Assembly (NCBI GenBank): GCA_030765585.1
Contig: JAVCCJ010000121.1
Span: 7,233 to 71,232, forward strand
Origin: Candidatus Zapsychrus exili
Lineage (GTDB): Bacteria > Omnitrophota > Gorgyraeia > Zapsychrales > Zapsychraceae
Reading direction: 5' to 3'
Length of the DNA stretch: 64,000 nucleotides
The notes beneath the pieces are model-generated. The model had not been told where the DNA came from, made no database searches, and saw only the letters and a list, made by a program, of their open reading frames with translations. The translations under genes and the position numbers were made by a program. Shown piece by piece: positions 8,223 through 29,314 of the stretch; positions within the stretch are counted from its first letter, which is position 1, and every line of letters starts with the position of its first letter.

Positions 8223-9068
8223 ATGAACATAGAAAATAAAAAACAATTTGCAACGATCTTGCTTGCAGTAGGCCTTGGTCTTTTTGCTGCTTTTTTGACC
8301 AGTCAATATGTCAGAAAAAGTGTTGAGAATCAAACAACAATATTAGCTGAAGACTATGCAAAACAAAATGCAATGCAGGCAGAGAAAATGAAGCAAGACA
8401 TTGTTATGTTACGTCAACAGCTTGAGAAAGAAATACAAGGTGTTATGAAAAAACAAGGGACAGCTAAAAAAGTTGATGCGCCAAGAGAAAAAATGGTTCG
8501 CGCAGAAGCTTTTTCTGTTAAGACTCCTATTGGTAAAAGAGCAATTACTATTTTAATTGATCCTCTTTCTGCCGTTGGTGGTTTAGTTAATCCAGGCGAT
8601 TCAGTAGATATTATTGCTCATTTAGAGATTCCAAATGCTTACGATGAAGAAGAAGCTCCAGAGGATGTGACAACAATTTTATTTCAAAATATAGAAGTTT
8701 TAGCTATTAATACTAATTTTGAGCCAATAAATAATGCTCCAAATTATGTAGCACAACAACAAGCTAAGAAATTAAATATCACCTTAGCACTGGAGCCAGA
8801 GGCTGCAGCGCTTCTTACTTTTGCTGAAAAGAATGGCAAGTTACAATTATCTTTAAGGGGACCCAATGAAGATGAAACAGGAGTCTTTAGAGTTGCATCT
8901 TGGGAATCTTTATCTAATTTTGTTTTAGAAAGACAAGGAACAAATTTAATAGTTCCAGGAGCATATAAACAAGAAGTGCCAATTAAGAAAAATATTATTA
9001 TAAATCAAGAAGTAGAAGAAAGCGGACCGTATATTCAAATTTTTAAATCAGGGATAGAATACGAATAG
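8223..9068 (+). CDS. cpaB: Flp pilus assembly protein CpaB/RcpC
   Basis: N-terminal TM, then RAITILIDPLSAVGGLVNPGDSVDIIAHL, the SAF/CpaB signature. Confidence 0.8.
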   Translation: MNIENKKQFATILLAVGLGLFAAFLTSQYVRKSVENQTTILAEDYAKQNAMQAEKMKQDIVMLRQQLEKEIQGVMKKQGTAKKVDAPREKMVRAEAFSVKTPIGKRAITILIDPLSAVGGLVNPGDSVDIIAHLEIPNAYDEEEAPEDVTTILFQNIEVLAINTNFEPINNAPNYVAQQQAKKLNITLALEPEAAALLTFAEKNGKLQLSLRGPNEDETGVFRVASWESLSNFVLERQGTNLIVPGAYKQEVPIKKNIIINQEVEESGPYIQIFKSGIEYE

Positions 9069-9200
9069 ATAAAAAAATAAAATCTTTTGGGAAACCAATG
9101 GAAGTGTTTGATGCTGTTGTAGACGCATCAGGCATAAAATCGCATTTATAATTTATGTTTTTGTTTGCATAAATTATGTGCTTATTTAAGGAAATGAACT

Positions 9201-11087
9201 ATGAAAAAATACAGCATATCAAAAAAGAGCATACTTTCTATTATGTGCATGTCGTTATTATTAATGACGTGTATTGCCACATCTTTTGCTTTAGCTGAAG
9301 ATGCGGCCGAAACAAAAGAAACCATTGATACTCTGGGTATTGCCGAAATTAGCATGATAAAAGGAGAACTTGATACACTTAAAGTTTATTCTTTGACCAG
9401 AGTTTCTTTAACTGATCCGTCTGTAGCTGATATTGTTGATGCAAACGCTAACGAGATTTTACTTATCGCAAAAGAAGAGGGCCAAACAGCGCTTTTTATT
9501 TGGGATAAACATGGAAAAAGAACTCTTGCGGTAAATGTTTTTAATCAACATTTAGAAAGTATTAAAGGTAGACTTGAAGACTTGCTTGATTCTGCTGGTA
9601 TTTCTGGAATAGTGGTCGAAGTCAACAAAAAAGAAGGAAAGGTCATTGTTGTTGGAGATATAAACGAAGAGCAACAAGAACATTTTGATAAAATTATAGC
9701 ACCTTTTGACAGAGATCTTATTTTATTGACCAGAGAAGAAAAAGCCGAAGATCTTATTCAAATAGATTTGCAAATCACAGAGCTAATTACAACTTTATCT
9801 GAAACCATAGGTGTAGATTGGTCTGCAGGTGATGAAAATAGTGTTGTGTTAACATACGCAGAAAATATGCCTACTTTCAATCAAGGGGGAGTTCAGGATA
9901 TTGTAAAAGTAGGAGCTTTTAATAGAACCTCAGCTTTGCTTGCAACAGTAAATGCTCTTGTATCAGAAGGAAAAGCAAGAATACTTTCTCAACCAAAACT
10001 AGTTGTTGTTAGTGGAGAAGAAGCAAGTTTTTTAGTTGGAGGTGAGATACCAGTTAGGACAACAACTGTTAATGATGATGGTACTGCGGAAAATATAGAA
10101 TATAAAGAATATGGCATTGGTATGACAATTCAACCTACTATTAGAAAAGAGAAAATTGATATAATTCTTGATACAGAAATAAGTGATATAGACGGTTCTT
10201 CTCCTGCAGGAGCAGATGATGTTGCATTCTTAACTAGAGCAGCTCAAACACAACTTTATCTTGAAGACGGGCAAACGATTGTTATCGCTGGTTTGATTAA
10301 AAGTAATAAAAATGAAAGTAGAACTTCGGTTCCATTTTTTAGCAAAATTCCTGTTTTAGGGCTTTTGTTTAGAAGTAGATCTAATCCAGCGGCGAATCAA
10401 GATACAGAAATTGTTATATCTCTTACACCTCATATTTTAGTGGAAGAGAAGAGAAAAGAGGTTGTGGTAGATGAGATAAAAGAAATAGTTAGAAGAGAAG
10501 AAATTATTACTATAATTAATAATGTTTTAGAAGAAGAGATTGTGGAAATTGATGAAGTGGTTGAAGAGACAGAAGGAATGGAAAATGTAGCAGAGAATGC
10601 AGAAGCGGCAAATAAAGGTACTATTTATACAGAGGAAGCTACAGAATTAGAAGAAGTTGAGGCAATTATTGAGGAAGAAAAGGAAGCAGAAGAAGTTGAT
10701 TTGTTTTTTTTAGCAGACGATGATTCTGTTCCAATAGATGAAAAGCCTTATCAAGCGCCAGAAAATGATTATATTTTAGAAGGTATTCCTGAAGAGATGC
10801 AGAACTATGTAAAGGGTGTTCAGCAAGCAATTTTTGAGTCCATATCCTATCCTATCGAAGCAGAAAATTATGGCTGGGAAGGTATGGTTAAGTTAGGTAT
10901 GCTTATTTTAGACGACGGAACACTTGCTTTTGCTCTTGTTAAAGAATCTTCAGGATACGAAGTTTTTGATAACAACGCTTTAGAAACAGCTAAGAATTTA
11001 GCACCATATCCGGCATTTCCATCTGATACTGATCTTATGGAGTTAAGCGTAACAATACCTATCGTATATTCCTTAGATAGTAAATAG
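9201..11087 (+). CDS. cpaC: Tad/T2SS-family secretin (CpaC/RcpA-like) with an acidic linker and a C-terminal TonB_C-like domain
   Basis: Signal peptide. Secretin core ILSQPKLVVVSGEEASFLVGGEIPV...IVIAGLIKSNKNESRTSVPFFSKIPVLGLLFRS. Glu-rich linker. C-terminus ISYPIEAENYGWEGMVKLGMLILDDGTLAFALVKESSGYEVFDNNALETAKNLAPYPAFP...IPIVYSL matches the TonB C-terminal pattern. Confidence 0.8.
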   Translation: MKKYSISKKSILSIMCMSLLLMTCIATSFALAEDAAETKETIDTLGIAEISMIKGELDTLKVYSLTRVSLTDPSVADIVDANANEILLIAKEEGQTALFIWDKHGKRTLAVNVFNQHLESIKGRLEDLLDSAGISGIVVEVNKKEGKVIVVGDINEEQQEHFDKIIAPFDRDLILLTREEKAEDLIQIDLQITELITTLSETIGVDWSAGDENSVVLTYAENMPTFNQGGVQDIVKVGAFNRTSALLATVNALVSEGKARILSQPKLVVVSGEEASFLVGGEIPVRTTTVNDDGTAENIEYKEYGIGMTIQPTIRKEKIDIILDTEISDIDGSSPAGADDVAFLTRAAQTQLYLEDGQTIVIAGLIKSNKNESRTSVPFFSKIPVLGLLFRSRSNPAANQDTEIVISLTPHILVEEKRKEVVVDEIKEIVRREEIITIINNVLEEEIVEIDEVVEETEGMENVAENAEAANKGTIYTEEATELEEVEAIIEEEKEAEEVDLFFLADDDSVPIDEKPYQAPENDYILEGIPEEMQNYVKGVQQAIFESISYPIEAENYGWEGMVKLGMLILDDGTLAFALVKESSGYEVFDNNALETAKNLAPYPAFPSDTDLMELSVTIPIVYSLDSK

Positions 11088-11114
11088 CAAATTTTAATAA
11101 AGAAATTTTAGTTT

Positions 11115-13274
11115 ATGAGCTGTAAAACAATTACTATCTTTAGTAACAAAGGTGGCGTAGGAAAAACTTTTGTTACTATTAATTTAGCTACCGCACTTGC
11201 ATCCGCAGGTAAAAAGACACTTGTCATCGATTTAGATTTTCAAGCAGGCCAAGATATGGCAAGAATGCTTAATTTATCTCCTAGAGGGTCTGTTGCTGAC
11301 TCTTTGTCTAACATAGAAAGCGCAGAGAATCCTGATGTAATAAAAGAATACGTAGCACAACATAAGTCAGGCTTGCACTTTATTCCTGCCGTTAAGAATA
11401 CCAAACAAATAGGTCATGTTACCCCAGACAATATTAAGCTTTTTATGAAGAAAGTAGCTAAGGTATATGATTATATTTTAGTTGATGCCGGTAGATCATT
11501 TAATGAAACTCTTGTAACAGTATTTGATTATTCTAATCTTATATTGCTTGTTGCTACTCCAGATGTTTTGGCAGTTTATCAGGTAAAGTGGTGTTTAGAT
11601 ATTTTGCAAAATCTACAGTTTCCTGCAAATATGATAAAGCTTATATTAAATAGATCTGAGAGCAAAGGCTCTGTGGCGTGGCAAGAAATAAGGACTGCCT
11701 TGCCTTGTGAAATCTTTAGTCATATTCCTTCTGACGGCAAAATAGTTGGTACTGCGATGAATAGAGGTGTTCCATGTGTTTTAGATAGCCCTAAATCTAA
11801 GGTTGCGGAAGCGTTTGTTAAGATGACACATATGCTAAGTCGAGAAGATATTTTTGTTGATGTAGCTGATACTGATAAGATTCGATCAACAGAAGGATTT
11901 GTGAAACCTGGTCAATTTTGGGAGAAGTTTGGGATATTTAAACAAAGCGGGCAAACAGAAAATGTTCTCGGCACTGTAGAAGATGAATTTGCTAATTTAA
12001 AACAAAAAATACATGAAAAACTTATTGAAAGACTTAACTTAGAAGGCATTACTCTTGAGAATTTGAATGATCAGCAGACAATAGAAAAAGTTAAAAAGTC
12101 TTCAGAAGATATTGTAAGAGATTTGTTGGCAGAAGAAATGGGTGGTAATATTTCTTCTCATGAAGAGCGAGCCAGAATAATTAAAGATATTGTAAACGAG
12201 GCTCTTGGATTAGGTCCCTTGGAAGATCTTCTCGCTGATCCGGACGTAACTGACATTATGGTTAATAGTAAAAATGAAATTTATGCTGAAAAGAACGGAA
12301 AAATAATATTAACTAATAAAACTTTTGTGTCAGATTCAAAGATGAGGGCGATTATTGATAGAATTATTGCTCCTTTAGGAAGACGTATTGACGAATCAAC
12401 ACCTATGGTTGATGCGCGACTTCCGGATGGTTCAAGAATTAATGCTATTATCCCACCTTTAGCATTAAACGGACCAATGATTACTATTAGAAAATTTGGA
12501 CAAGAAAGACTTACTATCGCAGATTTGCTTACTATGCATAAAAGTATTACACCTGAGATATCGTCTTTTTTGCAGGCTGCTGTTGTTGCGCGTAAAAATA
12601 TTATTGTCTCCGGAGGAACAGGTGCTGGTAAAACAACACTTTTAAATGTACTTTCTGAGTTTATTCCCGACGGAGAGCGTATTATTACAATAGAAGATGC
12701 TGCTGAGCTTAGACTCAAGAAAACTCATTGTGGAAGGCTTGAATCTAGACCAGCAAACGTTGAAGGAAAAGGAAAAATAACGATAAGAGATTTATTTGTT
12801 AATTGTCTTCGTATGCGTCCAGATAGAATTGTTATTGGTGAGTGTCGTGGTGGAGAGGTATTAGATATGCTTCAGGCAATGAATACAGGACACGATGGAT
12901 CCCTTACAACAATTCATGCTAATTCTACGAGAGATGTTTTGACGCGTCTTCACTCTTTGATTTTATTAAGTGGTATTGAACTTCCAGTTCGTGCAATAAA
13001 CGAGATGGTAGCCTCTGCAATAGATTTGATTGTCCACATAAGCCGTTATTCTGATGGTACAAGAAAAGTAACAGGAGTGTCTGAGGTAATTGGGATAGAT
13101 GATGAATTCCAAATAATTTTAAATGATGTTTTTATCTTTAATCAGCAAGGTATTGATGAGAATGGCAATATTATTGGAAATTATGAAGCCACTGGATATG
13201 TTCCTGAATGTTACGAAGATTTTTCAACGCGCGGTATTAAGATTGATAAAGCAATATTTAATAAACCAAAATAA
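11115..13274 (+). CDS. cpaF: Fusion of a CpaE/TadZ-like ParA/MinD ATPase with a CpaF/TadA secretion ATPase
   Basis: N-terminal deviant Walker A SNKGGVGKTFVTINLA...VIDLDFQ. C-terminal TadA core GGTGAGKTTLLNVL, ITIEDAAEL, RPDRIVIGECRGGE, NTGHDGSLTTIHAN. Confidence 0.8.
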   Translation: MSCKTITIFSNKGGVGKTFVTINLATALASAGKKTLVIDLDFQAGQDMARMLNLSPRGSVADSLSNIESAENPDVIKEYVAQHKSGLHFIPAVKNTKQIGHVTPDNIKLFMKKVAKVYDYILVDAGRSFNETLVTVFDYSNLILLVATPDVLAVYQVKWCLDILQNLQFPANMIKLILNRSESKGSVAWQEIRTALPCEIFSHIPSDGKIVGTAMNRGVPCVLDSPKSKVAEAFVKMTHMLSREDIFVDVADTDKIRSTEGFVKPGQFWEKFGIFKQSGQTENVLGTVEDEFANLKQKIHEKLIERLNLEGITLENLNDQQTIEKVKKSSEDIVRDLLAEEMGGNISSHEERARIIKDIVNEALGLGPLEDLLADPDVTDIMVNSKNEIYAEKNGKIILTNKTFVSDSKMRAIIDRIIAPLGRRIDESTPMVDARLPDGSRINAIIPPLALNGPMITIRKFGQERLTIADLLTMHKSITPEISSFLQAAVVARKNIIVSGGTGAGKTTLLNVLSEFIPDGERIITIEDAAELRLKKTHCGRLESRPANVEGKGKITIRDLFVNCLRMRPDRIVIGECRGGEVLDMLQAMNTGHDGSLTTIHANSTRDVLTRLHSLILLSGIELPVRAINEMVASAIDLIVHISRYSDGTRKVTGVSEVIGIDDEFQIILNDVFIFNQQGIDENGNIIGNYEATGYVPECYEDFSTRGIKIDKAIFNKPK

Positions 13275-16294: not shown

Positions 16295-16459
16295 ATGATG
16301 CATTTAATAAAAACAAAAGGAAACAAGGGTCAACACTTAATAGAATATGCCATGGTCGCGGCTATTGTAGCAGCAGCAGTGGTCGCTATGAGTACCTATG
16401 TGTTTAGGTCAGTTCAGTCTACGCAACAAATGATTCATAAAGAGTCTAGAAACGAATAA
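16295..16459 (+). CDS. flp: Flp-family prepilin (54 aa); below the ORF-track size cut-off
   Basis: MMHLIKTKGNKGQHLIEYAMVAAIVAAAVVAMSTYVFRSV.. has the G/QHLIEY class-III prepilin motif and a hydrophobic helix. Read directly from the DNA. Confidence 0.6.
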   Translation: MMHLIKTKGNKGQHLIEYAMVAAIVAAAVVAMSTYVFRSVQSTQQMIHKESRNE

Positions 16460-16517
16460 CAAGAAGTTAGAACAAAAGTAAAATAGAATTGATAACCTTT
16501 TAAGGAGGTCATAAGCG

Positions 16518-16739
16518 ATGTTAAAAAGAAATAAATTAAAAGTACAAACAAAGAAAAAAGGACAAAGCACGGTTGAATATATTATTTTAGTTGCTGGTGT
16601 TTTAGCAGCTTTAATTGTATTTCTACGACCAGGTGGTCCATTTAATAATGCATTAGACTCAACTTTAAATTCACAATTAAGCGAAATGAACACTATGTCT
16701 AGTAGATTAGCGGATTCTCATAATCCAGACGTAAGATGA
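16518..16739 (+). CDS. flp: Flp-family prepilin
   Basis: Strong SD aaggagg. KKGQSTVEYIILVAGVLAALIVF contains G/QSTVEY. Confidence 0.75.
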   Translation: MLKRNKLKVQTKKKGQSTVEYIILVAGVLAALIVFLRPGGPFNNALDSTLNSQLSEMNTMSSRLADSHNPDVR

Positions 16740-16781
16740 CGAACGCTATGTTTAGTAGATTAGCGGATTCTCATAATCCAG
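16693..16781 (+). repeat. 36-nt tandem duplication (period 53 nt) spanning the stop codon of the second flp gene
   Basis: ctatgtctagtagattagcggattctcataatccag (16693-16728) and ctatgtttagtagattagcggattctcataatccag (16746-16781). Confidence 0.7.
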
Positions 16782-16873
16782 GCTAATCTAGGCGTATAGT
16801 TTTTTTTGTAGTAGAATTAATTGTAGAATTTAATCAGTTGAAAGTTAAATTTTATTTTAGGAGGATTAAACAA

Positions 16874-17245
16874 ATGTTAAGAAAATTAATTAAAAATAAG
16901 AAAGCTCAGAATACTGCAGAATACGCTATTTTGATATCTCTTGTTGTAGCTGGTATTGTTGCTATGCAGACGTATGCGCAACGTGCTCTTCAAGCAAGAG
17001 TTTATTCAGCATCTGAGTTGTTATCAACTTCTGCAAATAGTACAGAGGCCGCAGGTTGGTCTTTAGGCGAAGAAAAACAATATGAACCTTATTATCTTAA
17101 TCAAAGTTATGATGTTACATCAGAAGATCAAGAACGCCGTAGTCTAGGAAATCAAGATGTTTCCATGGATACAGCTTCTAATAGAACTAGACAAACAGGT
17201 GGCTATCAAAATACGATGTGGAATGCAGACGACCACATGAACTAA
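16874..17245 (+). CDS. Flp/TadE-like prepilin with an extended C-terminal domain (start taken at the internal Met with SD ggagg, not 16838)
   Basis: MLRKLIKNKKAQNTAEYAILISLVVAGIVAM contains A/QNTAEY. Confidence 0.65.
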   Translation: MLRKLIKNKKAQNTAEYAILISLVVAGIVAMQTYAQRALQARVYSASELLSTSANSTEAAGWSLGEEKQYEPYYLNQSYDVTSEDQERRSLGNQDVSMDTASNRTRQTGGYQNTMWNADDHMN

Positions 17246-17296
17246 GAGTTTAGTTTAAGTACTAAGGTTTAAACTTTATTTAGGAGGATATAAAAG

Positions 17297-17632
17297 ATGT
17301 TAAAATATTTAAATAAAAGACGTAAAAAAGGACAAAGCACACTAGAATATGCTGTTTTAATTATTATTATTATTGGTGCTCTGCTGTCTATTCAGGTTTA
17401 CATTAAAAGAGGTATTCAGGGTCGTCTTAAAAGTGCAACAGATGACATCGGCGATCAATTCTCGCCAGGTAATACAAATGTTAAAGCTTATACTAGAACT
17501 GAGTCCAGGACAATAGAGACTAATGATAAAGGAGCAGCAAGTTCTGTTCTGAGGGAAGATGAGTTAACAGTTTCTAATATGGTTTCCAATGTTATTGATG
17601 TTGAACAAGAATATTGGGGTGGACCAGAGTAG
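17297..17632 (+). CDS. flp: Flp-family prepilin
   Basis: SD ggagg. RRKKGQSTLEYAVLIIIIIGALLSI. Confidence 0.7.
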   Translation: MLKYLNKRRKKGQSTLEYAVLIIIIIGALLSIQVYIKRGIQGRLKSATDDIGDQFSPGNTNVKAYTRTESRTIETNDKGAASSVLREDELTVSNMVSNVIDVEQEYWGGPE

Positions 17633-17854
17633 AGATTAGATGTATTTGTATTTAAATATAAAAGGGGGCATGTTTTTACAACGTGTCCTCTTTTTTGTGT
17701 TTGAATCTATTAGGCGCGGTCTCATCTGGGGCGTTGGGTAGCTACTGTCGCCAAGTATATTTCTTGTATGTGTTATTGTCTTTATAAAAAACATAGTGTA
17801 TACTTAATATACGAATATTAGTATTAATTTTTATTAGTAAGGTAAAATAATATT

Positions 17855-18289
17855 ATGTTAAGACTGTTTAAAGAAAAAAAAGCACAGACCAGCATAGGCG
17901 AATATGCTCTAACTTTCTTTTTGGTCATTGGAGCTATAGCTACAATGACTATTTTTGTTAGAAGAGCCATTCAAGCAAGAATTTATTCAGCACATAAAAT
18001 AATAGCTGATACTGTTGAAACTCGTGCCGCAGGATACAAAATGGCAGGAAATGTTTTTGTTGAATATGAGCCTTATTATACGAACACAGTTATGCAGAGA
18101 AGCATGAGCGCGTCTGCCAATGCTGAGCTTATGTCAAGTGGCGTAGGAACGTCGGGAATTTTTACGAAAGAGTCGTCAGAAGAATCGACTGTTGATAGTA
18201 CAAGCGGTGTAGCAGCGCCTAGCGGAGAGTCAGGTGCGGCTAGAGTGATAGGAGACAATGCAAGCGTACCGCCGCCCAATGGTGATTAA
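17855..18289 (+). CDS. Flp/TadE-like prepilin with a Ser/Gly-rich C-terminal extension
   Basis: EKKAQTSIGEYALTFFLVIGAIATMTIF. Confidence 0.6.
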   Translation: MLRLFKEKKAQTSIGEYALTFFLVIGAIATMTIFVRRAIQARIYSAHKIIADTVETRAAGYKMAGNVFVEYEPYYTNTVMQRSMSASANAELMSSGVGTSGIFTKESSEESTVDSTSGVAAPSGESGAARVIGDNASVPPPNGD

Positions 18290-18305
18290 GAATAGGTAAA
18301 GAATT

Positions 18306-18647
18306 ATGAAAATAAAGAAAATATTATTTGAAAACAAAGCGCAAACAATTTTAGAATATGCTGCTATTTTAAGCATTGTGTCTATAGCGCTTATTACAAT
18401 GAATCCTATGATAAAAAGAGCGCTGCAGGGAGCTATTAGAACTGTTGCTGACCAAATTGGAACTCAAAATGGAGCAGAGCAGGATTTTGATTCAGGTTTT
18501 CTTAATGAATCTCAGACTTCTTCTAGAGCTACAAGTTTTAAGCAAGTAGAGCAACAATTAGGCAATACTATTTATACCTACGATGATAGTACTGATATGG
18601 AGTCGACTGCTTATTCAGACTTAGGGGTAACAGATATAGATAATTAA
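18306..18647 (+). CDS. Flp/TadE-like prepilin
   Basis: ENKAQTILEYAAILSIVSIALITM. Confidence 0.6.
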   Translation: MKIKKILFENKAQTILEYAAILSIVSIALITMNPMIKRALQGAIRTVADQIGTQNGAEQDFDSGFLNESQTSSRATSFKQVEQQLGNTIYTYDDSTDMESTAYSDLGVTDIDN

Positions 18648-18684
18648 GGTAAAAGTTAAAACATAAAGGATAAAGGTACATAAA

Positions 18685-19014
18685 ATGTTAAGAATAAAGA
18701 AAAAAGGCCAGTCGTCATTAGAATATGCAACTCTTATTATTGTTGTCATTGGCGTGTTGCTTACAATGGGGGTTTATTTTAAAAGAGGTATTCAGGGAAG
18801 ATGGAAAGCATCAGCTGATGGTCTAGGCGAACAATATGATCCTAGATATACTATTTCAAATACAGTACATACAATAGAATCAAATACAGAAACATCGCTT
18901 TTTATTGTTCCTGTAGACCCCTTAAATCCTAATGATACGTTTGCAACGCATAGAGTTGATACTACTAGCGCAACTGAAACTAGAGTAGGCAATACAATAG
19001 TTGCTGGATATTAG
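18685..19014 (+). CDS. flp: Flp-family prepilin
   Basis: KKKGQSSLEYATLIIVVIGVLLTM. Confidence 0.7.
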   Translation: MLRIKKKGQSSLEYATLIIVVIGVLLTMGVYFKRGIQGRWKASADGLGEQYDPRYTISNTVHTIESNTETSLFIVPVDPLNPNDTFATHRVDTTSATETRVGNTIVAGY

Positions 19015-19102: not shown

Positions 19103-20773
19103 ATGAGAAAATTAAAAGAATATTTATATAAACATCCTAAGGCTCAGACAGCTATTGAATTGGCTGTTTTTGGAGCAATCTTGATATTTGTTTTAGGAGC
19201 CATAATAAAGCAAACTTTGGGCTTTAGTTATGCGCAGAACCAGGGTCTTAAGTCAATGCGTATGGCAATGACAATGTCTTTAAAGAATTCATTTTTTGGT
19301 AATGGATATCCGCAAGGAGGAGAATATGATGATACTGGTATAATTTATGGAAACAGTTCTCGTAATTCCGCATCAGTGCTTTTAGTCGAAGACAGGCTTA
19401 CTGCCGGTTCAGCCAAACATGGTACTGTTGATCGCGTTCCGCACATGTCATCGGGCGCAGGCACATTTTCAATAAATCTTTTTATGCCTCTTGATGACGA
19501 AGAAGATGTAAATATTCCGATACTCGACGTGTATGTAAATGGTAAACATTTTCCATTTCAAATGGCAAAATTTAAAACAGTTGAATTTCCTGTTCCAGAT
19601 AATCCTGATGCAGAGCCAGGAGATGATGATTATGATTATGATCGTGGTTATGGTTGGGATAAGACATGTTATCTGGCGGAAGATCCAGTATCTTCTCTTA
19701 TGTTTGATGTTGGATGTGCGCGAATATATACTTTCATTCCAAACCATCTAAGCATGAGAGGTGAAAATGGTTCAGGCATGGGTAAAGACAGGTGGTGTTC
19801 GACCAGTCCTTGTCCAGATATTAGAACAGTAGATGAAGCCTTTGATTTAGATAGAGATTTTAGGACATCGTGTTCTGGATGTCCAGAAGGCTCTGAAGTA
19901 TTGCCCGAATATAGAGAGTCTTTTGCTTGGCAATGGTATGGTGTTAAAGCGCTTAACGAAGATAAAGACTTTTTAAAAAAAGTTGAGGATGATCATTTTA
20001 TGATGGCGGCTTTTCTCGATGGAGGGACAGGTGTAAATTTAGAAACCGGATTAAACTTAATGGTTGATGTTGACGGAGATTGGCAAGAAGAATTTATTAC
20101 AAAAATATTAAAGACATCAACTAATACTGATAAAGTAAAGCATGATGCTCCTCCAGAGGACGAGAATTATGACCCAGAAAAATATCGTAGATGGTATGGA
20201 CAAATTGAAGAAGTTAGAGTTCTTGATTATCAAGAAGGAGATTTGAATTTTTCGACAGTATACAAAAATTATAATTCTGCGAATCCTAAGCCTGGTTTTA
20301 CTAGAGATGTTGCAATGTATACTTTTATAAGCGCAACAGGTGATGGTAGTAATGGAGAAGGAACATATCTTAGCATTGAAGAAGGCCAGCTTTTTGATGG
20401 TGATGAAAAACGATACATACGTAATGTTCAGAGAAAAGATCAGATTGATCTTATTTCTCGTACTATGCAATTAAGTAATAATACGGGACGCTTTTGTGGA
20501 ACCTCGCCTCTTGGGCCAATGCCTGGTGGACTTGAGCTGATTGGTTTAGCAGCAGGAGAACCTAATCCTGTTGATGTTTGTTGTATAAATGGGGCATGTA
20601 ATGGAGGCGGATCAAGTTGTTTTAGTGACGAAACCATTGCGCATACTTGTATGGATTTAAATGGTACTGCGACAGGTCCTGTTATTTATGTAAGAAGTCG
20701 CATTGCTGATTTAAGAGGTAAAAAATGGATTACTAATACTTCTGAAGATGATTATATTGAGTTTGCAAGATAA
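19103..20773 (+). CDS. Large (556 aa) TadG/pseudopilin-like protein: prepilin-type N-terminus plus a Cys-rich acidic extracellular domain
   Basis: HPKAQTAIELAVFGAILIFVLGAI N-terminus. C-terminal domain has more than 20 Cys in CxxC-like pairs and Asp-rich stretches. Confidence 0.6.
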   Translation: MRKLKEYLYKHPKAQTAIELAVFGAILIFVLGAIIKQTLGFSYAQNQGLKSMRMAMTMSLKNSFFGNGYPQGGEYDDTGIIYGNSSRNSASVLLVEDRLTAGSAKHGTVDRVPHMSSGAGTFSINLFMPLDDEEDVNIPILDVYVNGKHFPFQMAKFKTVEFPVPDNPDAEPGDDDYDYDRGYGWDKTCYLAEDPVSSLMFDVGCARIYTFIPNHLSMRGENGSGMGKDRWCSTSPCPDIRTVDEAFDLDRDFRTSCSGCPEGSEVLPEYRESFAWQWYGVKALNEDKDFLKKVEDDHFMMAAFLDGGTGVNLETGLNLMVDVDGDWQEEFITKILKTSTNTDKVKHDAPPEDENYDPEKYRRWYGQIEEVRVLDYQEGDLNFSTVYKNYNSANPKPGFTRDVAMYTFISATGDGSNGEGTYLSIEEGQLFDGDEKRYIRNVQRKDQIDLISRTMQLSNNTGRFCGTSPLGPMPGGLELIGLAAGEPNPVDVCCINGACNGGGSSCFSDETIAHTCMDLNGTATGPVIYVRSRIADLRGKKWITNTSEDDYIEFAR

Positions 20774-20783
20774 AGGTAAAAAG

Positions 20784-21056
20784 ATGAAAGATAAAAGAAA
20801 AAATAAAAGACAAAAGGCAAAATACAAGAATAGTAATTCAGCTCAGATTATTATTGAGTTTATTTTTTGTATGACTATTTTGCTTTTAATGATTTATGGA
20901 ACGCTGATGATTTTTAAATGGACGGGTTCGGATCTTGTTCACAGGCGTATCGCGCATGATGAATTATTAATAGGAGGCGGTGGCGTCCCTCTTAATCAAA
21001 TAGACCCATATTTTTATACACCTATTAAGATGAATGCTGTTTGGTCAGGGAATTAA
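20784..21056 (+). CDS. TadE-like pseudopilin (start at the internal Met 20784 with SD aaagg, not 20748)
   Basis: NSNSAQIIIEFIFCMTILLLMIYGTLMIF. Confidence 0.55.
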   Translation: MKDKRKNKRQKAKYKNSNSAQIIIEFIFCMTILLLMIYGTLMIFKWTGSDLVHRRIAHDELLIGGGGVPLNQIDPYFYTPIKMNAVWSGN

Positions 21057-21072
21057 AGAGTAAGGATAAAAA

Positions 21073-24000
21073 ATGTTTAGACGATTAAATTATATTCTGA
21101 GAAATAATTATTTTACAAGATCTTTAAAAAATATCGGTCAAGATATTGGCCAAGACAAAAGAATGCGTTCTTCAAAAGGGCAGATTGCTCTCTTACTTGT
21201 TTTGGTAATTGCAATTGCTCTTATTTTTTATGCAGTTTCTCTTAATTTAGGTAAAGTGTCTCAAACAAAAACAATGGTTACTATCGCCTCAAATGTTGCG
21301 ACTGGTTATTTGGCATCACAAATGGCAAGTTGGGGACAAGCAAAGGCAGATCAACTAGAAGGAAAGAGAAAGCATTGTGCGCTTACGGGTGTTGTTGCAG
21401 CGATAGTTGGTTTTGTTATCCTTATTATTGCAATAGTTTTGATGCCTGAATCAGCAGGCTTATCAGCAGGTTTAATAGAAGTATCAATCGGACTTGCTGT
21501 TGCTGCTATTGTTATTGAACTCGTATGGGTTAATCCTCAGATATCAAGTTTGTGGGATAGGATAATGGCAAATTCTTTGTCTCAAGAGTCTCAGTTTTCA
21601 GAAAGCTCAATACAAAAAGCATTGCAGAATGTTATTACTGATCAAGTTCAGGTGCCCGATCTCCATGATGATGATATGGACCAAGTATGGTGGGCAGATG
21701 CTCCTAATGGCTCATCGCCAGATATGATGAGCAGATATGCATATTATTATAAAACAAGGCTTAATAGGGTTGTTCCAAGAAATTGGACAGTGGTATCAGA
21801 ATTTCTTGAAGCTTTAGGTGATTTTATTTATTACAGGCCACCTGATATTGATCCAAACGATGATTGGGGGCTTATGGATTCTGAAAATGATTGTAATCCC
21901 TTATCAAATTCAGAATGTCAACCGTGTTGTGTTTCTGCGGATGCAAGAGATGCTGATCTTGATTGTAGTAGTTTAATAGCAACTTATGGAAGCGTTGAAG
22001 GCTGGTGTAGCGCACATAGTCCTTATTCGGGAGGATCTACAGAATATCCGTACATTTATAATCCGTATCCATTTTTTGAAAAGATAGATAATAGTCGTGA
22101 CTCTTTAAGAGAATTGATAGGTCGTGATGATGAGAATACAAAATATTATGCTGATTATGATGCTTTTCTTGGGACACAATTAGAGCATGGTATTCCTGAT
22201 CCTGATGCGTGGAACAATAATAATGATTTCCATATTGAAGACACTGTTGGGTTTTATAATAACGATAATAGAAAAGATGTTTTTTCTTTCTTTCATCAAA
22301 TAGCAGAAAATATAACTGATTGGAATTGGGGAGGCGGAGTTGATTTAAACGATCTTGCGCCTCGTGAGCAGTATGGCGCTGAAGAGGACCTTGTTTATTT
22401 AGAGCAATGTAATTGGTGTGATAGGAACTTTGTTACTCCTGCAGGAGATCCTCTTGGAAACTGTAGGCATCGTACGTCAGGACCAGGCGGTTTTGAATTA
22501 GGCATGAGTCAACTTGCTTTGTTAAATTCGCCTGATCATAATGCTAGTTATTGTGTAGAAGGAACAGAGGCTGCAGCAGAGGCGGGTAATCCTCTTTTAG
22601 CTGTAGATAAATTTACAGTTGCGGATGGAATTCAAGCGTCAAAGGACAGTTGTCCTGAAGCTGGACCAGGCGGTAGTACAGGTTTTTGGAAACCAGGATC
22701 GGATCAATTTTGTTCAAACAGTTTTCCTTATCCTGCAAATTGCGCTAAACATAGCTTGCCTTGTGATGTTTACGGAGTTTATACAAATTGCCCTACTTGT
22801 GAGGCTTCTCCTGATAAGACATTGTGGCGCGATGATATGATTGACGATTTTCTTTATAACTTTCAACATTTCTTTAAATGGGCGTCATTTTCGATGAATA
22901 TAGGGGTAGATATTATTAGAAATGATTTTGTTGGTTGGTATGATAGTTCAGCGGAAAAGTGGATAGATGAAACTTCTAATCCGGAGGATAATGATAACAT
23001 TCTTCTTGGCGTTAAAAATAATTTTACAGAAATGGCAAGGAGGCTTAAAAATTGGAAAAATAGCACAGAATATATTGGTAATGTTTGGTGTGTTCCTTCT
23101 AATGGCACAATACCGTTACCAACGGTTGTGCCACCTTATGTAAACCTTTTAACTCCCGAAGAAGAAGTTATTGATAATGCGGGAAATAGGGGAACCTTGG
23201 GAAATATTATTGCGTGTTTGAATTGGAACATTAGCGGCGGAAGCGGCATAGTAAATAAAATGAATAATTGTACGTCAGCTTGTCAAGTTTATACTACTAA
23301 CCCAGGAGACCCAGAAGACCCAAGTGATACTGTAACTGCTTATGCTGCAAACCAGGCATGTTATAATCTTCCGACCAGATCACTTTCAGGGATTAACTTG
23401 CAAGGACAATACCACTCAATTGGGTCAGCAGTACCAGGAGATACTTTAGACACGGCTTGTGCAGATTCTGACTTTTTGAGCAATCTTTCAGAAAGTGCTC
23501 ATCAGGGGGTTAATCAGACTGTAAAATTTCAAAAAAGGCGAGAGTTTCTTTCTTCCTTAGAAATTGGCTTGGACAATGCAATTGTTACATTTAATTATGC
23601 TGCAGAAGGATTTGCTGATTTCTTAGAAAGCGATGAAGTCGCGGCATTAAAAGAATTTAGAGCAGATTTCTTTAATGTTGATGACTTTACAGAAAACTCT
23701 CCTTATCAATTAATTTATGGATGGAAAGATGATGAATCAAAAGTAAAAGATCCGTTGTGGCATCTTGTTCGTGTTGATGCTCGTTTGCCGAAAAAGTGTG
23801 ATCAAGAAAATTCTTCCTTATGCGGCAATTGGCAATGGCCAGATATTGACGAGTATACTAAGGGGATTTTCGCAACAACACGTTGTTATGAGCTGAAGAA
23901 TCATACAGGTGGAGTTAAAATTCGCGTTACTAGATATGACGAAAGTCCAAAAACAGGTAATTTAATTTTTCCAAACGGCGTGCCAATTTGGGATTTTAAA

Positions 24001-24306
24001 TACAAGCGTTCTGGTTTAGACAACACAGAAAACATTCCAGCCCTTGAGGCTGCTTGTCTAGGAGCTAGTAATGATCTTCTTCCGCCTATTTTAGCTGAAA
24101 GTTCAATATATAAACCTGTTTATCAACAGGCCTTTATTCTAAATAAAGCTGATGAATATCCTGCTTGTTGGAACAAAGCGATGGATCATATTAAAATGGG
24201 AGTTATGACAGAAACATGTGCGCAGTATTTTTGGTTGGGACCCGACTATGGTGGTTCAATGAATTTAAAGTTTGTTCCATGCCCTGGGTCGAACGCAGTT
24301 CAGTAA
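21073..24306 (+). CDS. Giant (1,077 aa) TadG-like minor pilin / tip-adhesin candidate: prepilin-like N-terminus, second TM, then a Cys/Trp/Asn/Asp-rich extracellular domain
   Basis: ...MRSSKGQIALLLVLVIAIALIFYAV (G/QIALL). Remainder rich in C, W, N and D with many CxxC pairs. No enzymatic motif seen. Confidence 0.6.
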   Translation: MFRRLNYILRNNYFTRSLKNIGQDIGQDKRMRSSKGQIALLLVLVIAIALIFYAVSLNLGKVSQTKTMVTIASNVATGYLASQMASWGQAKADQLEGKRKHCALTGVVAAIVGFVILIIAIVLMPESAGLSAGLIEVSIGLAVAAIVIELVWVNPQISSLWDRIMANSLSQESQFSESSIQKALQNVITDQVQVPDLHDDDMDQVWWADAPNGSSPDMMSRYAYYYKTRLNRVVPRNWTVVSEFLEALGDFIYYRPPDIDPNDDWGLMDSENDCNPLSNSECQPCCVSADARDADLDCSSLIATYGSVEGWCSAHSPYSGGSTEYPYIYNPYPFFEKIDNSRDSLRELIGRDDENTKYYADYDAFLGTQLEHGIPDPDAWNNNNDFHIEDTVGFYNNDNRKDVFSFFHQIAENITDWNWGGGVDLNDLAPREQYGAEEDLVYLEQCNWCDRNFVTPAGDPLGNCRHRTSGPGGFELGMSQLALLNSPDHNASYCVEGTEAAAEAGNPLLAVDKFTVADGIQASKDSCPEAGPGGSTGFWKPGSDQFCSNSFPYPANCAKHSLPCDVYGVYTNCPTCEASPDKTLWRDDMIDDFLYNFQHFFKWASFSMNIGVDIIRNDFVGWYDSSAEKWIDETSNPEDNDNILLGVKNNFTEMARRLKNWKNSTEYIGNVWCVPSNGTIPLPTVVPPYVNLLTPEEEVIDNAGNRGTLGNIIACLNWNISGGSGIVNKMNNCTSACQVYTTNPGDPEDPSDTVTAYAANQACYNLPTRSLSGINLQGQYHSIGSAVPGDTLDTACADSDFLSNLSESAHQGVNQTVKFQKRREFLSSLEIGLDNAIVTFNYAAEGFADFLESDEVAALKEFRADFFNVDDFTENSPYQLIYGWKDDESKVKDPLWHLVRVDARLPKKCDQENSSLCGNWQWPDIDEYTKGIFATTRCYELKNHTGGVKIRVTRYDESPKTGNLIFPNGVPIWDFKYKRSGLDNTENIPALEAACLGASNDLLPPILAESSIYKPVYQQAFILNKADEYPACWNKAMDHIKMGVMTETCAQYFWLGPDYGGSMNLKFVPCPGSNAVQ

Positions 24307-24385: not shown

Positions 24386-24730
24386 ATGTTGAAATCATTA
24401 AAAAAACATAAGAAGCCAAAAGGACAATCTTTTTTAGAATATGTTCTGCTGATTGTTTTTATTATTGCTGCTTTATTGGTTTTTCAGAAATATATTTCTC
24501 GAGCAATATGGGGAAGATATAAGTCAGTAGGAGATGCGCTTGGCAGTGGTTTGATATACGATCCAGAGAAAACGTTAGAATGTGGGTATGATCATCTGTA
24601 TGGATCTGGTTGGTACAATGCTGCTTGTTACGACGAGAATGATTGTGCACAGTATTGTGCAGCTAAGAAGCAGGCACCGTGCGTTAGTTGCATAGGGGCT
24701 TGTTTCGCTGCAAAATGTAGTGAAAATTAA
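24386..24730 (+). CDS. Flp-like prepilin with a Cys-rich C-terminal knot
   Basis: KPKGQSFLEYVLLIVFIIAALLVF. C-terminus has 9 Cys (CAQYCAAKKQAPCVSCIGACFAAKC). Confidence 0.65.
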   Translation: MLKSLKKHKKPKGQSFLEYVLLIVFIIAALLVFQKYISRAIWGRYKSVGDALGSGLIYDPEKTLECGYDHLYGSGWYNAACYDENDCAQYCAAKKQAPCVSCIGACFAAKCSEN

Positions 24731-24990: not shown

Positions 24991-25848
24991 ATGTTAGTTT
25001 TTGTATTATTTTTAATATTTTGTACTGCATGTATTTTTGGATATGCCATTGTACCGCATCTCTACAAACACGCCACTGTAATACAAGAGAAAAGAGAACA
25101 AAAGTATTCAATCCAGATGGAGCAGGTGCTTACTCGTGCAGAAGCAAGAAAGATGAGTCGGCTTTTTGTTTTTGCTCCACTTGTTTTATCTGCAGGTCTT
25201 TACTTTTTAGTACCTGCTGAGATAAGGATTTTTGCTGTTGCATTTGGCGTTGTTATTGGGCTTTTGATTCCTGGCATGTATGTTAAATCGATGGCTGATA
25301 GGGCAAGGCGTAAATTTCAATTTCAGCTTGTAGACGGGTTGATGATTATGTCTAGTTCTTTTAGAGGTGGTTTAAGTTTGATGCAGGCAATGGAGGCTGT
25401 TGTTGAGGAAATGCCTGATCCAATTAATAGAGAATTCGGAACAGTTTTAGGTGAAAACAAAATGGGTGTTTCTTTAGACGATGCTTTAAATCATCTTGAA
25501 AGGCGCATGCCTTCTGTCGCGCTTCGCCAGATGATCACTGCCGTTTTGCTTGCTCGTGAAACAGGTGGTAATTTGCCTGTTATTTTTACCCGTATTGCAA
25601 ATAATATTCGCGAAAACAGAAAGATTCAACAAAATATAGATACGTTGACCATTCAGGGTAAAATTCAGGGTGTAGTAATGACGCTTTTGCCTTTTGCTTT
25701 TGCTAGTATTGTTTTCTCGGCGAATAAACAGATATTTTTAAATATGTTTGAGTCTGAGTTAGGACGAATGATGTTAATTTATGCTGCTATCTCAAATATT
25801 ATTGGCGCATTTATGATTTGGAAAATTAGTAGTTTTAAGGACTTTTAA
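24991..25848 (+). CDS. tadB: Tad pilus inner-membrane platform protein TadB (T2SS-F family)
   Basis: Polytopic. GspF-like block FRGGLSLMQAMEAVVEEMPDPINREF...ALRQMITAVLLARETGGNLPVIF. Confidence 0.8.
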   Translation: MLVFVLFLIFCTACIFGYAIVPHLYKHATVIQEKREQKYSIQMEQVLTRAEARKMSRLFVFAPLVLSAGLYFLVPAEIRIFAVAFGVVIGLLIPGMYVKSMADRARRKFQFQLVDGLMIMSSSFRGGLSLMQAMEAVVEEMPDPINREFGTVLGENKMGVSLDDALNHLERRMPSVALRQMITAVLLARETGGNLPVIFTRIANNIRENRKIQQNIDTLTIQGKIQGVVMTLLPFAFASIVFSANKQIFLNMFESELGRMMLIYAAISNIIGAFMIWKISSFKDF

Positions 25849-25860
25849 TAAGAGGAAAAT

Positions 25861-26754
25861 ATGTTAGAACTAATTTTAGCCCTAGTGTTTACATTTGCTT
25901 ACCTTTCAGGGTTTTTCTTTATTTTGGCAGTTATCCCTATTCAATGGGATTATCGTCCGACTTTAAATGTTGCTGGTATTGGCGATGAGAAATCTCTTAG
26001 GCAAAAAAAGAAAAAGACACCATTTCATTTCTTAAGAAGTGTGGCTTTAATAAATAAGCCAATATGTCTTGGTGCATTAAGGGCAAGAATTGAAAAAGAT
26101 TTAGCAATAGCACACGTTAACATGACAGCAGAGGAGTTTCTTTTTATTAAGGAAGTTGGAATCTTTTTAATGCTTTTTCTTACATATCCAGTAGTTGCTT
26201 CTGATTTTGTTATGTTCTGGGGGATTATGTGTGTTGCGTTAGGATACATGATTCCTGAATTTTGGCTTAAAGGTAAAATTAAAACTTCTAAAGCCACAAT
26301 AATTAAAGAACTTCCTGATGCAATTGATTTGCTCGGACTTTGCGTTAATGCTGGACTTGATTTTATGCTTGCATTAAGATGGGTTGTTGAAAAGTCTCCG
26401 CCATCAGTTATGACCGACGAGCTAAACACAATATTGCAAGAAATTAGCGTTGGTAAGACGCGTAGGGATGCTATTAGAGATTTGTCTTACCGTTACCAAT
26501 TGCCTGATTTGTCTACTTTTGCTAGAACTTTAATCCAAGCAGATAAAATGGGAACTTCGGTTAGTGAAGCGCTGAATATGCTCTCAGAAGATATGCGTAT
26601 TGCGCGCTACAGACGAGGTGAACAGCTAGCATTAAAAGCCCCATTAAAACTTCTTGTGCCGCTTCTTTTCTTTATCTTTCCGGTTGTAGGTATTCTTGTT
26701 GCTGGACCGATATTGCTCGATTTTATCGAGAACAATCCTTTCGCTGCGCATTAA
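25861..26754 (+). CDS. tadC: Tad pilus inner-membrane platform protein TadC (T2SS-F family)
   Basis: ELPDAIDLLGLCVNAGLDFMLAL...TFARTLIQADKMGTSVSEAL is the GspF-domain signature. Confidence 0.8.
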   Translation: MLELILALVFTFAYLSGFFFILAVIPIQWDYRPTLNVAGIGDEKSLRQKKKKTPFHFLRSVALINKPICLGALRARIEKDLAIAHVNMTAEEFLFIKEVGIFLMLFLTYPVVASDFVMFWGIMCVALGYMIPEFWLKGKIKTSKATIIKELPDAIDLLGLCVNAGLDFMLALRWVVEKSPPSVMTDELNTILQEISVGKTRRDAIRDLSYRYQLPDLSTFARTLIQADKMGTSVSEALNMLSEDMRIARYRRGEQLALKAPLKLLVPLLFFIFPVVGILVAGPILLDFIENNPFAAH

Positions 26755-27140: not shown

Positions 27141-28010
27141 TTAGAATATTTTCGCAAATCCCTCGTCGATGAGTTCTTGGTTTAAATAGTATCCTTCTGT
27201 AAATATTTTATCGCGATTAGCTTCTGTTTTTGAATAAAAGATATGTGCTACATATCGGCCGTAAATATCTTGCTTGTTTGTTTTTATCATTACAAATGTA
27301 AGGCCACCGAGCAATGCATCTTCTGTGTATTTGCGCGCAGCTTCGCCCTCCTCGGTTCCCATCTCAGGGCAATCAATTGATGCTAGACGTATTCTTTGCT
27401 CGCGAGAAGTACAGAACCCTAAGTCAATGCGCGCAAGAATAGTATCGCCGTCAATTACACGCAAAACCTCTGCCTTGTAGACAAAACTTGCTTTAGTTGG
27501 ACGTTTTAAATCTGTTTTCTTTGTGATTATTTTTTCTTCGGCAGATGTCTCTTTAAAACTTTTTTCTTCGTAATATTTGTCTTTTATCTTTTGTGCAAGT
27601 TTGCGCTTACCCCATTTTTCTTGATTAGCTTCTTTAAAATAGAAATCACGCTTAGCATCATTTTCAATAGCGAGCAATTGTTTGTAATGATTCCAGCTTA
27701 AGCCGGAATCTTGAGGCATTCCATTTGGCCACAATTGAAAGAATTTTACCATTCTAGTAAGTAAACTGTATTCTATTTTGAGATCTTCTGCTATTTGTTT
27801 TAAGATGTTTTGTTTTTTTTCTAATCCTTGTTCTTGAGCAATTCTTTGGCCAAATTCCCAATATCCTTCTGCAATAATATTAGAGATGCTCTCTTTAACT
27901 TTATCTTTTGTATTATTAAGAATTGTTTTAAGGTCAGCAATAAGTTTTTCATATCCAATAATATTTGCTTTAGTATCTTTATCTGCCACTTTATTTCTCC
28001 TAATTTGCAT
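27141..28010 (-). CDS. Nuclease: YhcG/DUF1016 N-terminal domain fused to a staphylococcal-nuclease (SNase/thermonuclease)-like domain
   Basis: N-terminus IAEGYWEFGQRIAQEQ...LKQIAEDLKIEYSLLTRMVKFFQLWP (DUF1016_N pattern). C-terminus VIDGDTILARIDLGF...IRLASIDCPE...GRYVAHIF (SNase catalytic pattern). Confidence 0.7.
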   Translation of the reverse strand: MQIRRNKVADKDTKANIIGYEKLIADLKTILNNTKDKVKESISNIIAEGYWEFGQRIAQEQGLEKKQNILKQIAEDLKIEYSLLTRMVKFFQLWPNGMPQDSGLSWNHYKQLLAIENDAKRDFYFKEANQEKWGKRKLAQKIKDKYYEEKSFKETSAEEKIITKKTDLKRPTKASFVYKAEVLRVIDGDTILARIDLGFCTSREQRIRLASIDCPEMGTEEGEAARKYTEDALLGGLTFVMIKTNKQDIYGRYVAHIFYSKTEANRDKIFTEGYYLNQELIDEGFAKIF

Positions 28011-28247
28011 TTATTAGAGTTTTTAACAAAGAATCGATTGCCCCAATTGTTCCGCGGGGCAACTGGGGCAACTATTATTGTACTAAAAATGTGATAGCGC
28101 TGCAAGTAGAAATTTTAAAAAATGTTAGGGAAATAGGTGAGGGGCAGGTGAGGGTCAGACCCTTGTATTTTTGTCCCTTAGGTTTTCAGTGTTTTTAAGA
28201 GACAAGGTAGCGGCTACCTTTGGCGTGTTGGATGTTTTGTGCTAATG

Positions 28248-28730
28248 CTGGATATTAGAAAAACAAAGAGATGTTGTCATTGCGGGTCCTTTAGGGTGAA
28301 GCAATCTTAATGATATTTTATGGGATTCTACGGGGTCAGACCCCTTTTCTGTCCCCGCACTTGTTCCCCTGTTTCTTGTTTGCTCCTTGTAACGACATGT
28401 GTATTTGTCGTAAGATCGCAATGCGTAAGGTAAGGGTGAGAGCAAAGACTAAGGGGTAATGAGTATGTGTGAGGTTAATTTTGTTGGCTATGTAGCTGTT
28501 GCGTAGTTTTCTTAGGATAAAACCTTTTTGTTGACAGTGCTTTAGGTCTTTGCTTGAATAGTTTTTTTGCATTGATGTTTTATCAAAGCTTGATTTAGAG
28601 TCAATGGAAAAAGAAAGAGGTACTAGACCCTAGATTTTGGATACTTGATACTAGATGCTTGATGCTAGAAAAACAAAAAGATGTTGTCATTGCGAGCCCT
28701 TTAGGGTGAAGTAATTTCAATAAGATTAGA
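28248..28730. repeat. Two ~73-bp direct repeats, ~85% identical (agaaaaacaaaRagatgttgtcattgcgRGYcctttagggtgaagYaat...), 410 bp apart
   Basis: Copies at 28248-28320 and 28658-28730. Region GC is higher than the surrounding genes and has no long ORF. Confidence 0.55.
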
Positions 28731-29055
28731 TTATTTGTCATTAGGTTAGTAGGCCGCATCAAGTGTTGGATGACAAAAGAGGGTGGATAGGCTAGGGTTT
28801 ATCCCTATGTTTCTAAATGCTGCCATTATTAATGTCCAATCTGATTATGCTTTGTAACAAGAAGGTAGGACCATCCTGAGCAAAGCTAAGGATGACTTTT
28901 TTGTCATTTTTGCCTAGGGTCTGACCCTCGTACTTATAAATCAGATTGCTGGGCCGCTCGCCTCTGCGAAGCTTTACGGTTTCGCTACAGCGAAGCAGGG
29001 CAAATTCACATACATGACCTATTGAAATACTTGATGTAATCATAGAAGCATCAAG

Positions 29056-29314
29056 CGCAAATTTCTGCCTACCGGTAGTGTACTACTTCACAATTTTGGT
29101 AACACTTTAAAATTATTTAATAATTTTTTTTCCTTCTCCCCTTTGGGGAGAAGGCCTGTCTTTCTTTAGGAAGACAGAGATGAGGGGTAAGAATAAAAGC
29201 CCCTCACCTTAACCCTCTCCCCAAAGGGGAGAGGGAAAATTTCTTTTTGAAATCAATTATTTCTTCTACTAATTTGTTACCAAAATAGTGAAGAATTACA
29301 CGGTAGGTAGGCAC
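29056..29314. mobile_element. MITE-like foldback element (~260 bp) with ~40-bp imperfect terminal inverted repeats and two internal perfect hairpins
   Basis: Left end ctgcctaccggtagtgtactacttcacaattttggtaaca. Right end tgttaccaaaatagtgaagaattacacggtaggtaggcac (reverse-complement match ~80%). Internal hairpins ccttctcccctttggggagaagg and ccctctccccaaaggggagaggg. Central palindrome ctgtctttctttaggaagacag. Confidence 0.45.

Follow-up and report, generated by a model that had tools for sequence, protein, structure and literature searches.

Two large, cysteine-rich open reading frames (ORFs) in a Tad pilus operon of Candidatus Zapsychrus exili, a bacterium of the phylum Omnitrophota, may encode the tip of the pilus. 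The ORFs, here named A (556 amino acids, aa) and B (1,077 aa), lie in the 64,000-nucleotide stretch of a metagenome-assembled genome (MAG) that we analyzed as a whole (the window) and match proteins P9X22_09300 and P9X22_09310 exactly. We propose, with slightly better than even confidence, that A, B and a small pilin encoded between them are TadE/TadF/TadG-equivalent minor pilins that form the tip of an Omnitrophota pilus of the Tad (type IVc) kind. An initial annotation of this DNA had both genes exactly right in coordinates, strand and length, and described them as "giant" pseudopilins with class III-type N-termini and as candidate pilus-tip adhesins. The word "giant" applies to A and B only relative to pilins; the other claims are taken up below.

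Do A and B have the N-termini of pilins? A motif scan of the window found nine N-termini of the form A/G|Q-x3-E-[YFL] followed by hydrophobic residues (the bar marks the cleavage-type site), all located at 16.3–24.5 kb, with only 0.095 expected from residue shuffles. A carries the motif K-A|Q-T-A-I-E-L, with Glu at +5 as in the neighboring small pilins, and its leader ends in Ala before a hydrophobic stretch (K-A|QTAIELAVFGAILIFVLGAII). The small pilin between A and B also has Glu at +5 (S-A|Q-I-I-I-E-F). These features are invariant in the A family: in the family hidden Markov model (HMM) alignment, all 47 aligned copies have Ala or Gly at -1, Gln at +1 and Glu at +5 (47/47 for each). In B, the leader ends in Gly before the hydrophobic stretch (K-G|QIALLLVLVIAIALIFYAV), the site starts at residue 36 and position +5 is Leu. 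The corresponding alignment of 67 B-family locus copies shows Gly at -1 and Gln at +1 in every copy, with Ile, Val, Leu or Phe at +5 and Glu in none (0/67). Among B-family representatives, Gly occupies -1 in 130/133 (the other three have Ala) and Gln occupies +1 in 133/133, while +5 is hydrophobic (I/V/L/F/M/A) and is Glu in 0 of ~135. Thus, the class III-type N-terminus is genuine in A; B has the G|Q site but lacks Glu at +5 and carries two further hydrophobic helices.

A contains a single hydrophobic segment. Its AlphaFold2 model, built from 120 sequences (predicted local distance difference test score, pLDDT, 79.7; predicted template modeling score, pTM, 0.81), consists of a 54-residue helix (residues 12–65) followed by a beta-rich body. 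As modeled, this is a pilin architecture, a long alpha1 helix with a beta globular domain, although the body has no relative in the PDB despite the confidence of the model. The motif, the topology and the predicted structure together support A as a credible pilin. Pfam and NCBIfam scans yielded no significant match, enzymatic or other, for A, for any of 51 A-family members, for B, for any of 11 B-family members or for isolated N-termini and family consensus sequences, in agreement with the earlier remark that neither protein has a recognizable enzymatic motif.

Both proteins are enriched 5–7-fold in Cys, which makes up 2.2% of A (12 residues) and 2.8% of B (30 residues) but 0.41% of the window's other proteins. 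Trp (1.3% in A and 2.5% in B vs 0.71%) and Asp (9.0% and 8.0% vs 6.2%) are raised in both as well. Asn, also said to be dense, is raised in B (7.5% vs 5.5%) but not in A (5.2%). In B, the Cys and Trp enrichment characterizes a body of ~920 aa. Evidence for disulfides in A comes from the co-occurrence of Cys across the family. Conservation extends to eight of the 12 Cys. Among members with a residue at the position, 81–100% have Cys at C189, C205, C232 and C237; at C465, C493, C506 and C516, Cys is present in 119–120 of 120 members. The Cys count is even in 94% of A-family members, and variable Cys are gained or lost in pairs (C189–C205, phi 0.70; C232–C237, phi 0.84; insertion pairs, phi 0.95–1.0). 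Because Cys come and go in pairs across the family, disulfides in A are likely. Paired Cys insertions concentrate at residues ~160–240, the least conserved stretch, a behavior that would be expected of disulfide-stapled, exposed and variable loops.

How general is the association of A and B? The A family has at least 211 homologues, and every named one belongs to Omnitrophota; a scan of species-representative genomes found 80 A-family loci. An exhaustive profile search for the B family, for which the word index gave few matches, returned 806 clusters (50% identity); 355 had E≤1e-30, and most lengths were 950–1,700 aa. A B-family gene follows A in all 66 loci that have at least 1.5 kb of DNA downstream of A (median gap, 369 nucleotides, nt), a small class III pilin ORF with Glu at +5 lies between the two in 56/67 loci, and the operon order is identical in called-gene maps of distant genomes. 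This synteny (the A–B pairing, the small pilin between and the constant operon order) makes the three genes a fixed trio at the core of the Tad system. The size and synteny of both families rule out chance ORFs or an assembly artefact. A and B are not paralogues either: only their N-termini align, and their bodies are unrelated.

Records of the related loci are labeled Omnitrophota, "uncultured Planctomycetales" (about a third, from one third-party assembly series) and, for one short contig, Saccharibacteria. Since the operon is of a conserved Omnitrophota type, the last two labels are probably coarse or wrong. One MAG (isolate nzgw313) contains two different A-family loci (L018 and L041), which hints at genomes with several A/B sets, much as Myxococcus has multiple Tips.

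By what mechanism could the trio form a tip? By analogy with known filaments, A, the small pilin and B would insert into the inner membrane by their N-terminal hydrophobic helices, and a prepilin peptidase encoded elsewhere would process A and the small pilin after their Ala. A bundle of the three alpha1 helices would then form a priming complex on the TadB/TadC platform, and TadZ-TadA would polymerize the Flp fiber through the RcpC-secretin conduit. Since growth of type 4 filaments starts with the tip and proceeds toward the base, the priming complex would finally occupy the distal tip. B, which never has Glu5, would be the cap: Glu5 is absent only in cap subunits, and its absence from B would therefore be compatible only with a cap-type subunit. 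The large, probably disulfide-stapled bodies of A and B, with their variable Cys-paired loop insertions, would be exposed as a surface for contact with host or prey.

Several observations weigh against this proposal. First, A and B escape the known profiles: Pfam TadE (PF07811) matched neither A nor its 51 family members, its isolated N-terminus or its consensus, and the TadG profiles (Pfam PF13400 and NCBIfam TadG-related) matched neither B, its 11 members, its N-terminus nor its consensus. Four direct comparisons by hhalign with annotated TadE/TadG-type proteins all remained weak (E 0.005–0.05, probability <7%). The N-termini fell in register between B and an Arthrobacter TadG-related protein (G aligned to G and SLNLG to AVDEG; E 0.0053, probability 6.8%) and between A and an Arthrobacter TadE (Glu on Glu; E 0.018, probability 2.6%). 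A Rhizobium Tad-domain protein gave a weaker alignment with that part of B (E 0.045), and a Rhizobium TadE/TadG protein aligned with an unrelated internal stretch of A, which gave no meaningful alignment. We take these registers as leads in favor of the proposal rather than as proof of it. The 102-aa ORF of the small pilin had a faint TadE match (PF07811, E 0.18–0.2, 12 bits against a cut-off of 22.9). Second, profile and fold searches, the latter with an unreliable model in the case of B, detected no lectin or vWA adhesin domain and no TadG-domain fold, the folds for which the initial annotation had suggested a search. Third, no Peptidase_A24 (prepilin peptidase) gene was found in the window, and phmmer with a single Rhizobium A24 query, a weak negative, came up empty for both the window and 84 related loci.

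A further objection comes from the N-terminal region of B. After the first hydrophobic helix, B has two more (residues ~99–157), forming an extra hairpin; the three segments reach Kyte-Doolittle hydropathies of up to 3.2. At least 119 of 126 full-length B representatives have three or more hydrophobic segments in their first ~260 residues and almost none later, in contrast to most annotated TadE/TadG-type controls from Rhizobium and Arthrobacter plasmids, including both TadG-type ones, which have one hydrophobic helix. Three such helices should hinder extraction of B from the membrane into a fiber. The structural model of B offers little help. Repeating the word-index search with the B alignment brought in nothing new, so the alignment behind the model is shallow (11 sequences); the model is unreliable (pLDDT 51.5), with an alpha1 helix predicted at residues 36–94, and comparing it with known structures gave no significant match. 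Of the two predicted features on which the initial annotation had staked its case, a confident fold and a cleavage site, A has both and B has a conserved cleavage-type site without a confident fold.

Could B belong to the base of the machine instead? Only A and the small pilin would then be true minor pilins, and B would be a polytopic inner-membrane component, with three transmembrane helices and a large, disulfide-rich domain in the periplasm, serving in anchoring, alignment or gating and never entering the fiber. The three strongly hydrophobic segments, so widely conserved among the representatives, are what drives this reading, and the missing Glu5, the lack of a significant TadG profile match and the fact that TadG itself is experimentally uncharacterized (PMC12307814) all agree with it. 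Yet the invariant G|Q site is difficult to account for unless a prepilin peptidase recognizes it or B docks in a pilin-like way, and the absence of Glu5 is also the expected mark of a cap. The position of B and the size order of the trio mirror KilN/TadG, which has been modeled as the backbone of a tip (PMC12075869), and a Cys/Trp-rich body that varies so much in length across the family fits an exposed module better than a part of the machine. We regard a base component as unlikely, while giving it serious weight. The pilus-tip assignment is supported in so far as A and B are core, always-paired genes of a Tad locus whose layout is that of published prey-contacting Tad tip complexes; the three hydrophobic helices of B remain atypical for it.

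The hairpin can also be read as a weapon. B could be a membrane-inserting effector delivered by the tip, its hairpin shielded in the tip bundle and entering the prey membrane on contact in the manner of a translocator or pore-former. Besides the conservation of the hairpin, this idea draws on Pfam matches of the hairpin region, to ApoL in B (E 0.001) and to SseC in a single family member (E 0.0047), and on a Foldseek resemblance to alpha-pore-forming toxins that is insignificant (E about 1–2). All these matches are below threshold and expected from hydrophobic composition alone, as which we treated the ApoL and SseC matches; the model of B, too, is unreliable. This is the least probable of the explanations considered here. 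Slightly less improbable, and still highly speculative, is a combination in which B is the Glu5-less cap, holds its three hydrophobic helices in the filament core and releases the hairpin into the membrane of prey or host on contact. If so, the Tad pilus would be physically coupled to envelope breaching by the neighboring giant cell-wall hydrolase, and ultra-small Omnitrophota predators would have in A and B a device for recognizing and entering their prey.

A and B sit within a complete Tad/Flp pilus operon encoded entirely on the plus strand (Table 1). The seven small Flp/class III-signal pilins upstream of A may include the major pilin and additional minor pilins; the 144-aa one has its Glu at +6 (K-A|Q-T-S-I-G-E-Y), a one-residue insertion in an otherwise uniform motif. 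The small pilin between A and B is probably ~90 aa long, starting from the Met at 20784. The 114-aa Cys-rich pilin directly after B may, by analogy, be an adapter pilin like KilK/KilO; equivalent pilins were detected after B by motif scan in 21/54 related loci and have a median of 8 Cys.

Table 1. Genes and other features of the window, with positions counted from its first nucleotide.
Feature	Position	Strand	Remarks
PAS/HAMP sensor	606-2321		adjoins the PilZ-T2SSE ATPase
T2SSE-family ATPase with N-terminal PilZ domain	2711-4114	+	second T2SSE-family ATPase
Rotamase-type peptidyl-prolyl isomerase (PPIase; Rotamase_2)		+	first in the operon, before RcpC/CpaB
RcpC/CpaB	8223-9068	+	Tad machine core
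Secretin (Secretin + T2SS-T3SS_pil_N) with C-terminal TonB_C	9201-11087	+	Tad machine core
Fused TadZ-TadA ATPase, 719 aa	11115-13274	+	Tad machine core
Tad machine core (RcpC/CpaB, secretin, TadZ-TadA)	8223..13274	+	conserved in related loci
DUF192 gene	13306-13647	+	
660-aa protein without family match	13923-15905	+	adjoins the DUF192 gene
Seven Flp/class III-signal pilin genes (54, 73, 135, 111, 144, 113, 109 aa)	16295..19014	+	
144-aa small pilin of this set	17855-18289	+	Glu at +6
ORF A, 556 aa	19103..20773	+	putative large TadE/KilL-like minor pilin
Small minor pilin, 102-aa ORF	20748..21056	+	putatively TadF/KilM-like
ORF B, 1,077 aa	21073..24306	+	very large pilin-like protein, putatively TadG/KilN-like
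Cys-rich Flp-like pilin, 114 aa, 8 Cys	24386..24730	+	directly 3' of B
TadB-like and TadC-like platform proteins (T2SSF domain)	24991..26754	+	
DUF1016_N + SNase nuclease gene	27141-28010	-	only sizeable minus-strand gene in the regions examined
Stretch without sizeable ORF, ~2.2 kb	28010-30255		upstream of the giant ORF; contains the repeat in the next row
Weak 21-nt tandem repeat	29703-29784		
Giant ORF, 9,925 aa	30255-60032	+	Peptidase_C39 (N-terminal), OmpA, DEAD/ResIII, Peptidase_M23, SLT
Second long open frame, at least 1,364 codons	59909-64000	+	starts at the end of the giant ORF and leaves the window

Some components of the operon have unusual features of their own. The secretin ends in a TonB-type peptidoglycan- or receptor-binding tail, which is unusual on a secretin, and the same fusion occurs in two related Omnitrophota loci (L001 and L003). 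The fusion of TadZ (ParA/MinD-like) to TadA (T2SSE ATPase) is kept in related loci. The 660-aa protein shows only a faint IS630/HTH-like N-terminus and has counterparts of 632–674 aa at the equal operon position in distant Omnitrophota. Elsewhere in the window, the second T2SSE-family ATPase, whose PilZ domain is of a cyclic di-GMP-binding type, could be a regulated motor for extension or retraction. The DUF1016_N/SNase gene follows the two T2SSF genes on the plus strand in L001 and L002 and thus appears inverted in the window. The open frame at the end of the window probably represents another very large gene. Neither Rfam nor tRNA scans matched anything in the whole window.

The giant ORF begins ~6 kb downstream of the A/B pair, and its predicted domains are consistent with the published cell-wall-degrading giant proteins of Omnitrophota. 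Does the machine then secrete rather than attach? In passages of West-Roberts et al. (10.1101/2023.11.21.568195), a conserved locus before the giant genes is called type II secretion system (T2SS)-like, and in a 2026 preprint secretion or pilus genes flank 13/14 giants. A and B might accordingly tip a short pseudopilus that works as a piston and pushes cargo through the secretin, for example the giant protein or parts of it, whose C39, M23 and SLT domains are encoded so near. The components of the locus are however Tad-type (Flp pilins, RcpC, TadZ-TadA and two T2SSF proteins) and not the Gsp set, and nothing in A or B points to cargo binding. Moreover, giant proteins are reported in the same passages to have many transmembrane regions, which makes them unlikely piston cargo. 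We consider a secretion piston improbable. For a pilus tip formed by the trio, gene neighborhood and analogy suggest that A and B may act in adhesion and prey recognition and may cooperate with the giant protein.

Omnitrophota are widespread, uncultured and ultra-small and are thought to be predators or parasites, as the bacterium that carries this locus probably is. Tad loci beside Omnitrophota giant genes and TadEFG-type tip complexes have already been published; A and B are two of the "poorly conserved" genes inside the Tad/T2SS-like locus noted there. What the present analysis adds is a pair of large, unannotated families that obligately occur together, along with the orphan fold of A and the unusual three-helix N-terminal region of B. 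A and B represent phylum-wide families that always occur together, and their pilin-type N-termini and orphan, probably disulfide-stapled bodies make them the most plausible host-contact surface of the pilus. They are concrete targets for antibodies, for labeling in cryo-electron tomography and for host-range comparisons. A tip role would extend the recent idea of Tad pili customized by TadEFG-like tip complexes to another phylum, where the TadG-like member is unusual in its three helices.

How does the trio compare with known systems? The window itself is an instance of the "T2SS-like" locus in the passages of West-Roberts et al., where a Rotamase_2 PPIase, rcpC, gspD/E/F and small class III-signal genes precede the giant genes: the PPIase, rcpC, secretin, ATPase, gspF-like and small class III-signal genes are all here, followed by the giant. 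It is likewise the Omnitrophota Tad system discussed by Seymour et al. (PMC10066038). The passages of both papers retrieved by keyword search describe neither the two Cys-rich families nor the trio.

With the canonical TadE/TadF/TadG of Aggregatibacter and Pseudomonas (PF07811, PF13400), the trio shares pseudopilin-like N-termini encoded in a tad operon, a Glu5 in the TadE/F-type proteins and none in the TadG-type, and a size order of small, small, large; like TadG, B is the largest pseudopilin-like gene product of its locus. TadE and TadF are matured by TadV, and TadG is a predicted minor pilin (PMC12307814). In contrast, the bodies of A and B are unrelated to the canonical ones, are 2–3 times longer and have no vWA domain. 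The gene position also differs: the trio lies between the flp genes and tadB/C, whereas TadE/TadG genes lie upstream of the assembly genes in the Rhizobium tad locus and after two T2SSF genes in the Arthrobacter locus.

Priming tip complexes whose largest, capping subunit lacks Glu5 are known from GspK-GspI-GspJ of the T2SS and PilHIJK of type IVa pili (T4aP). These belong to another class of filament, no sequence or fold similarity to them was found and GspK has one hydrophobic helix. PilB (vWA) and PilC (lectin) of Streptococcus sanguinis likewise combine a pilin with a large grafted module in a tip complex that binds (PMC8179133, PMC9934059); their modules belong to known adhesive families, whereas those of A and B match nothing known, and they serve the T4aP of a monoderm rather than Tad pili.

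The closest parallel in layout and published description is the Kil Tip of Myxococcus xanthus (Herrou 2025, PMC12075869). KilL, KilM and KilN (homologues of TadE, TadF and TadG) comprise one extended, one short and one large pilin, the last with a PDB-orphan module; they are predicted to form a heterotrimeric Tip and are needed to form the pilus and to kill prey, and a like role is proposed for TadEFG in general. A and B are larger than their Kil counterparts and strongly Cys-rich, B has an extra hydrophobic hairpin and no Glu5, and the window holds a single trio, compared with four interchangeable ones in Myxococcus, with no type III secretion system partner (T3SS*) seen. Like the Kil Tip, the trio consists of three adjacent genes in or near the Tad locus of a predator, here a probable one, for an extended (A), a short and a very large pilin-like protein (B), and the extra module of KilN and the module of A both lack a PDB relative. 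Shared, too, is the proposed role: priming of the pilus, with variable domains that would be exposed to the prey.

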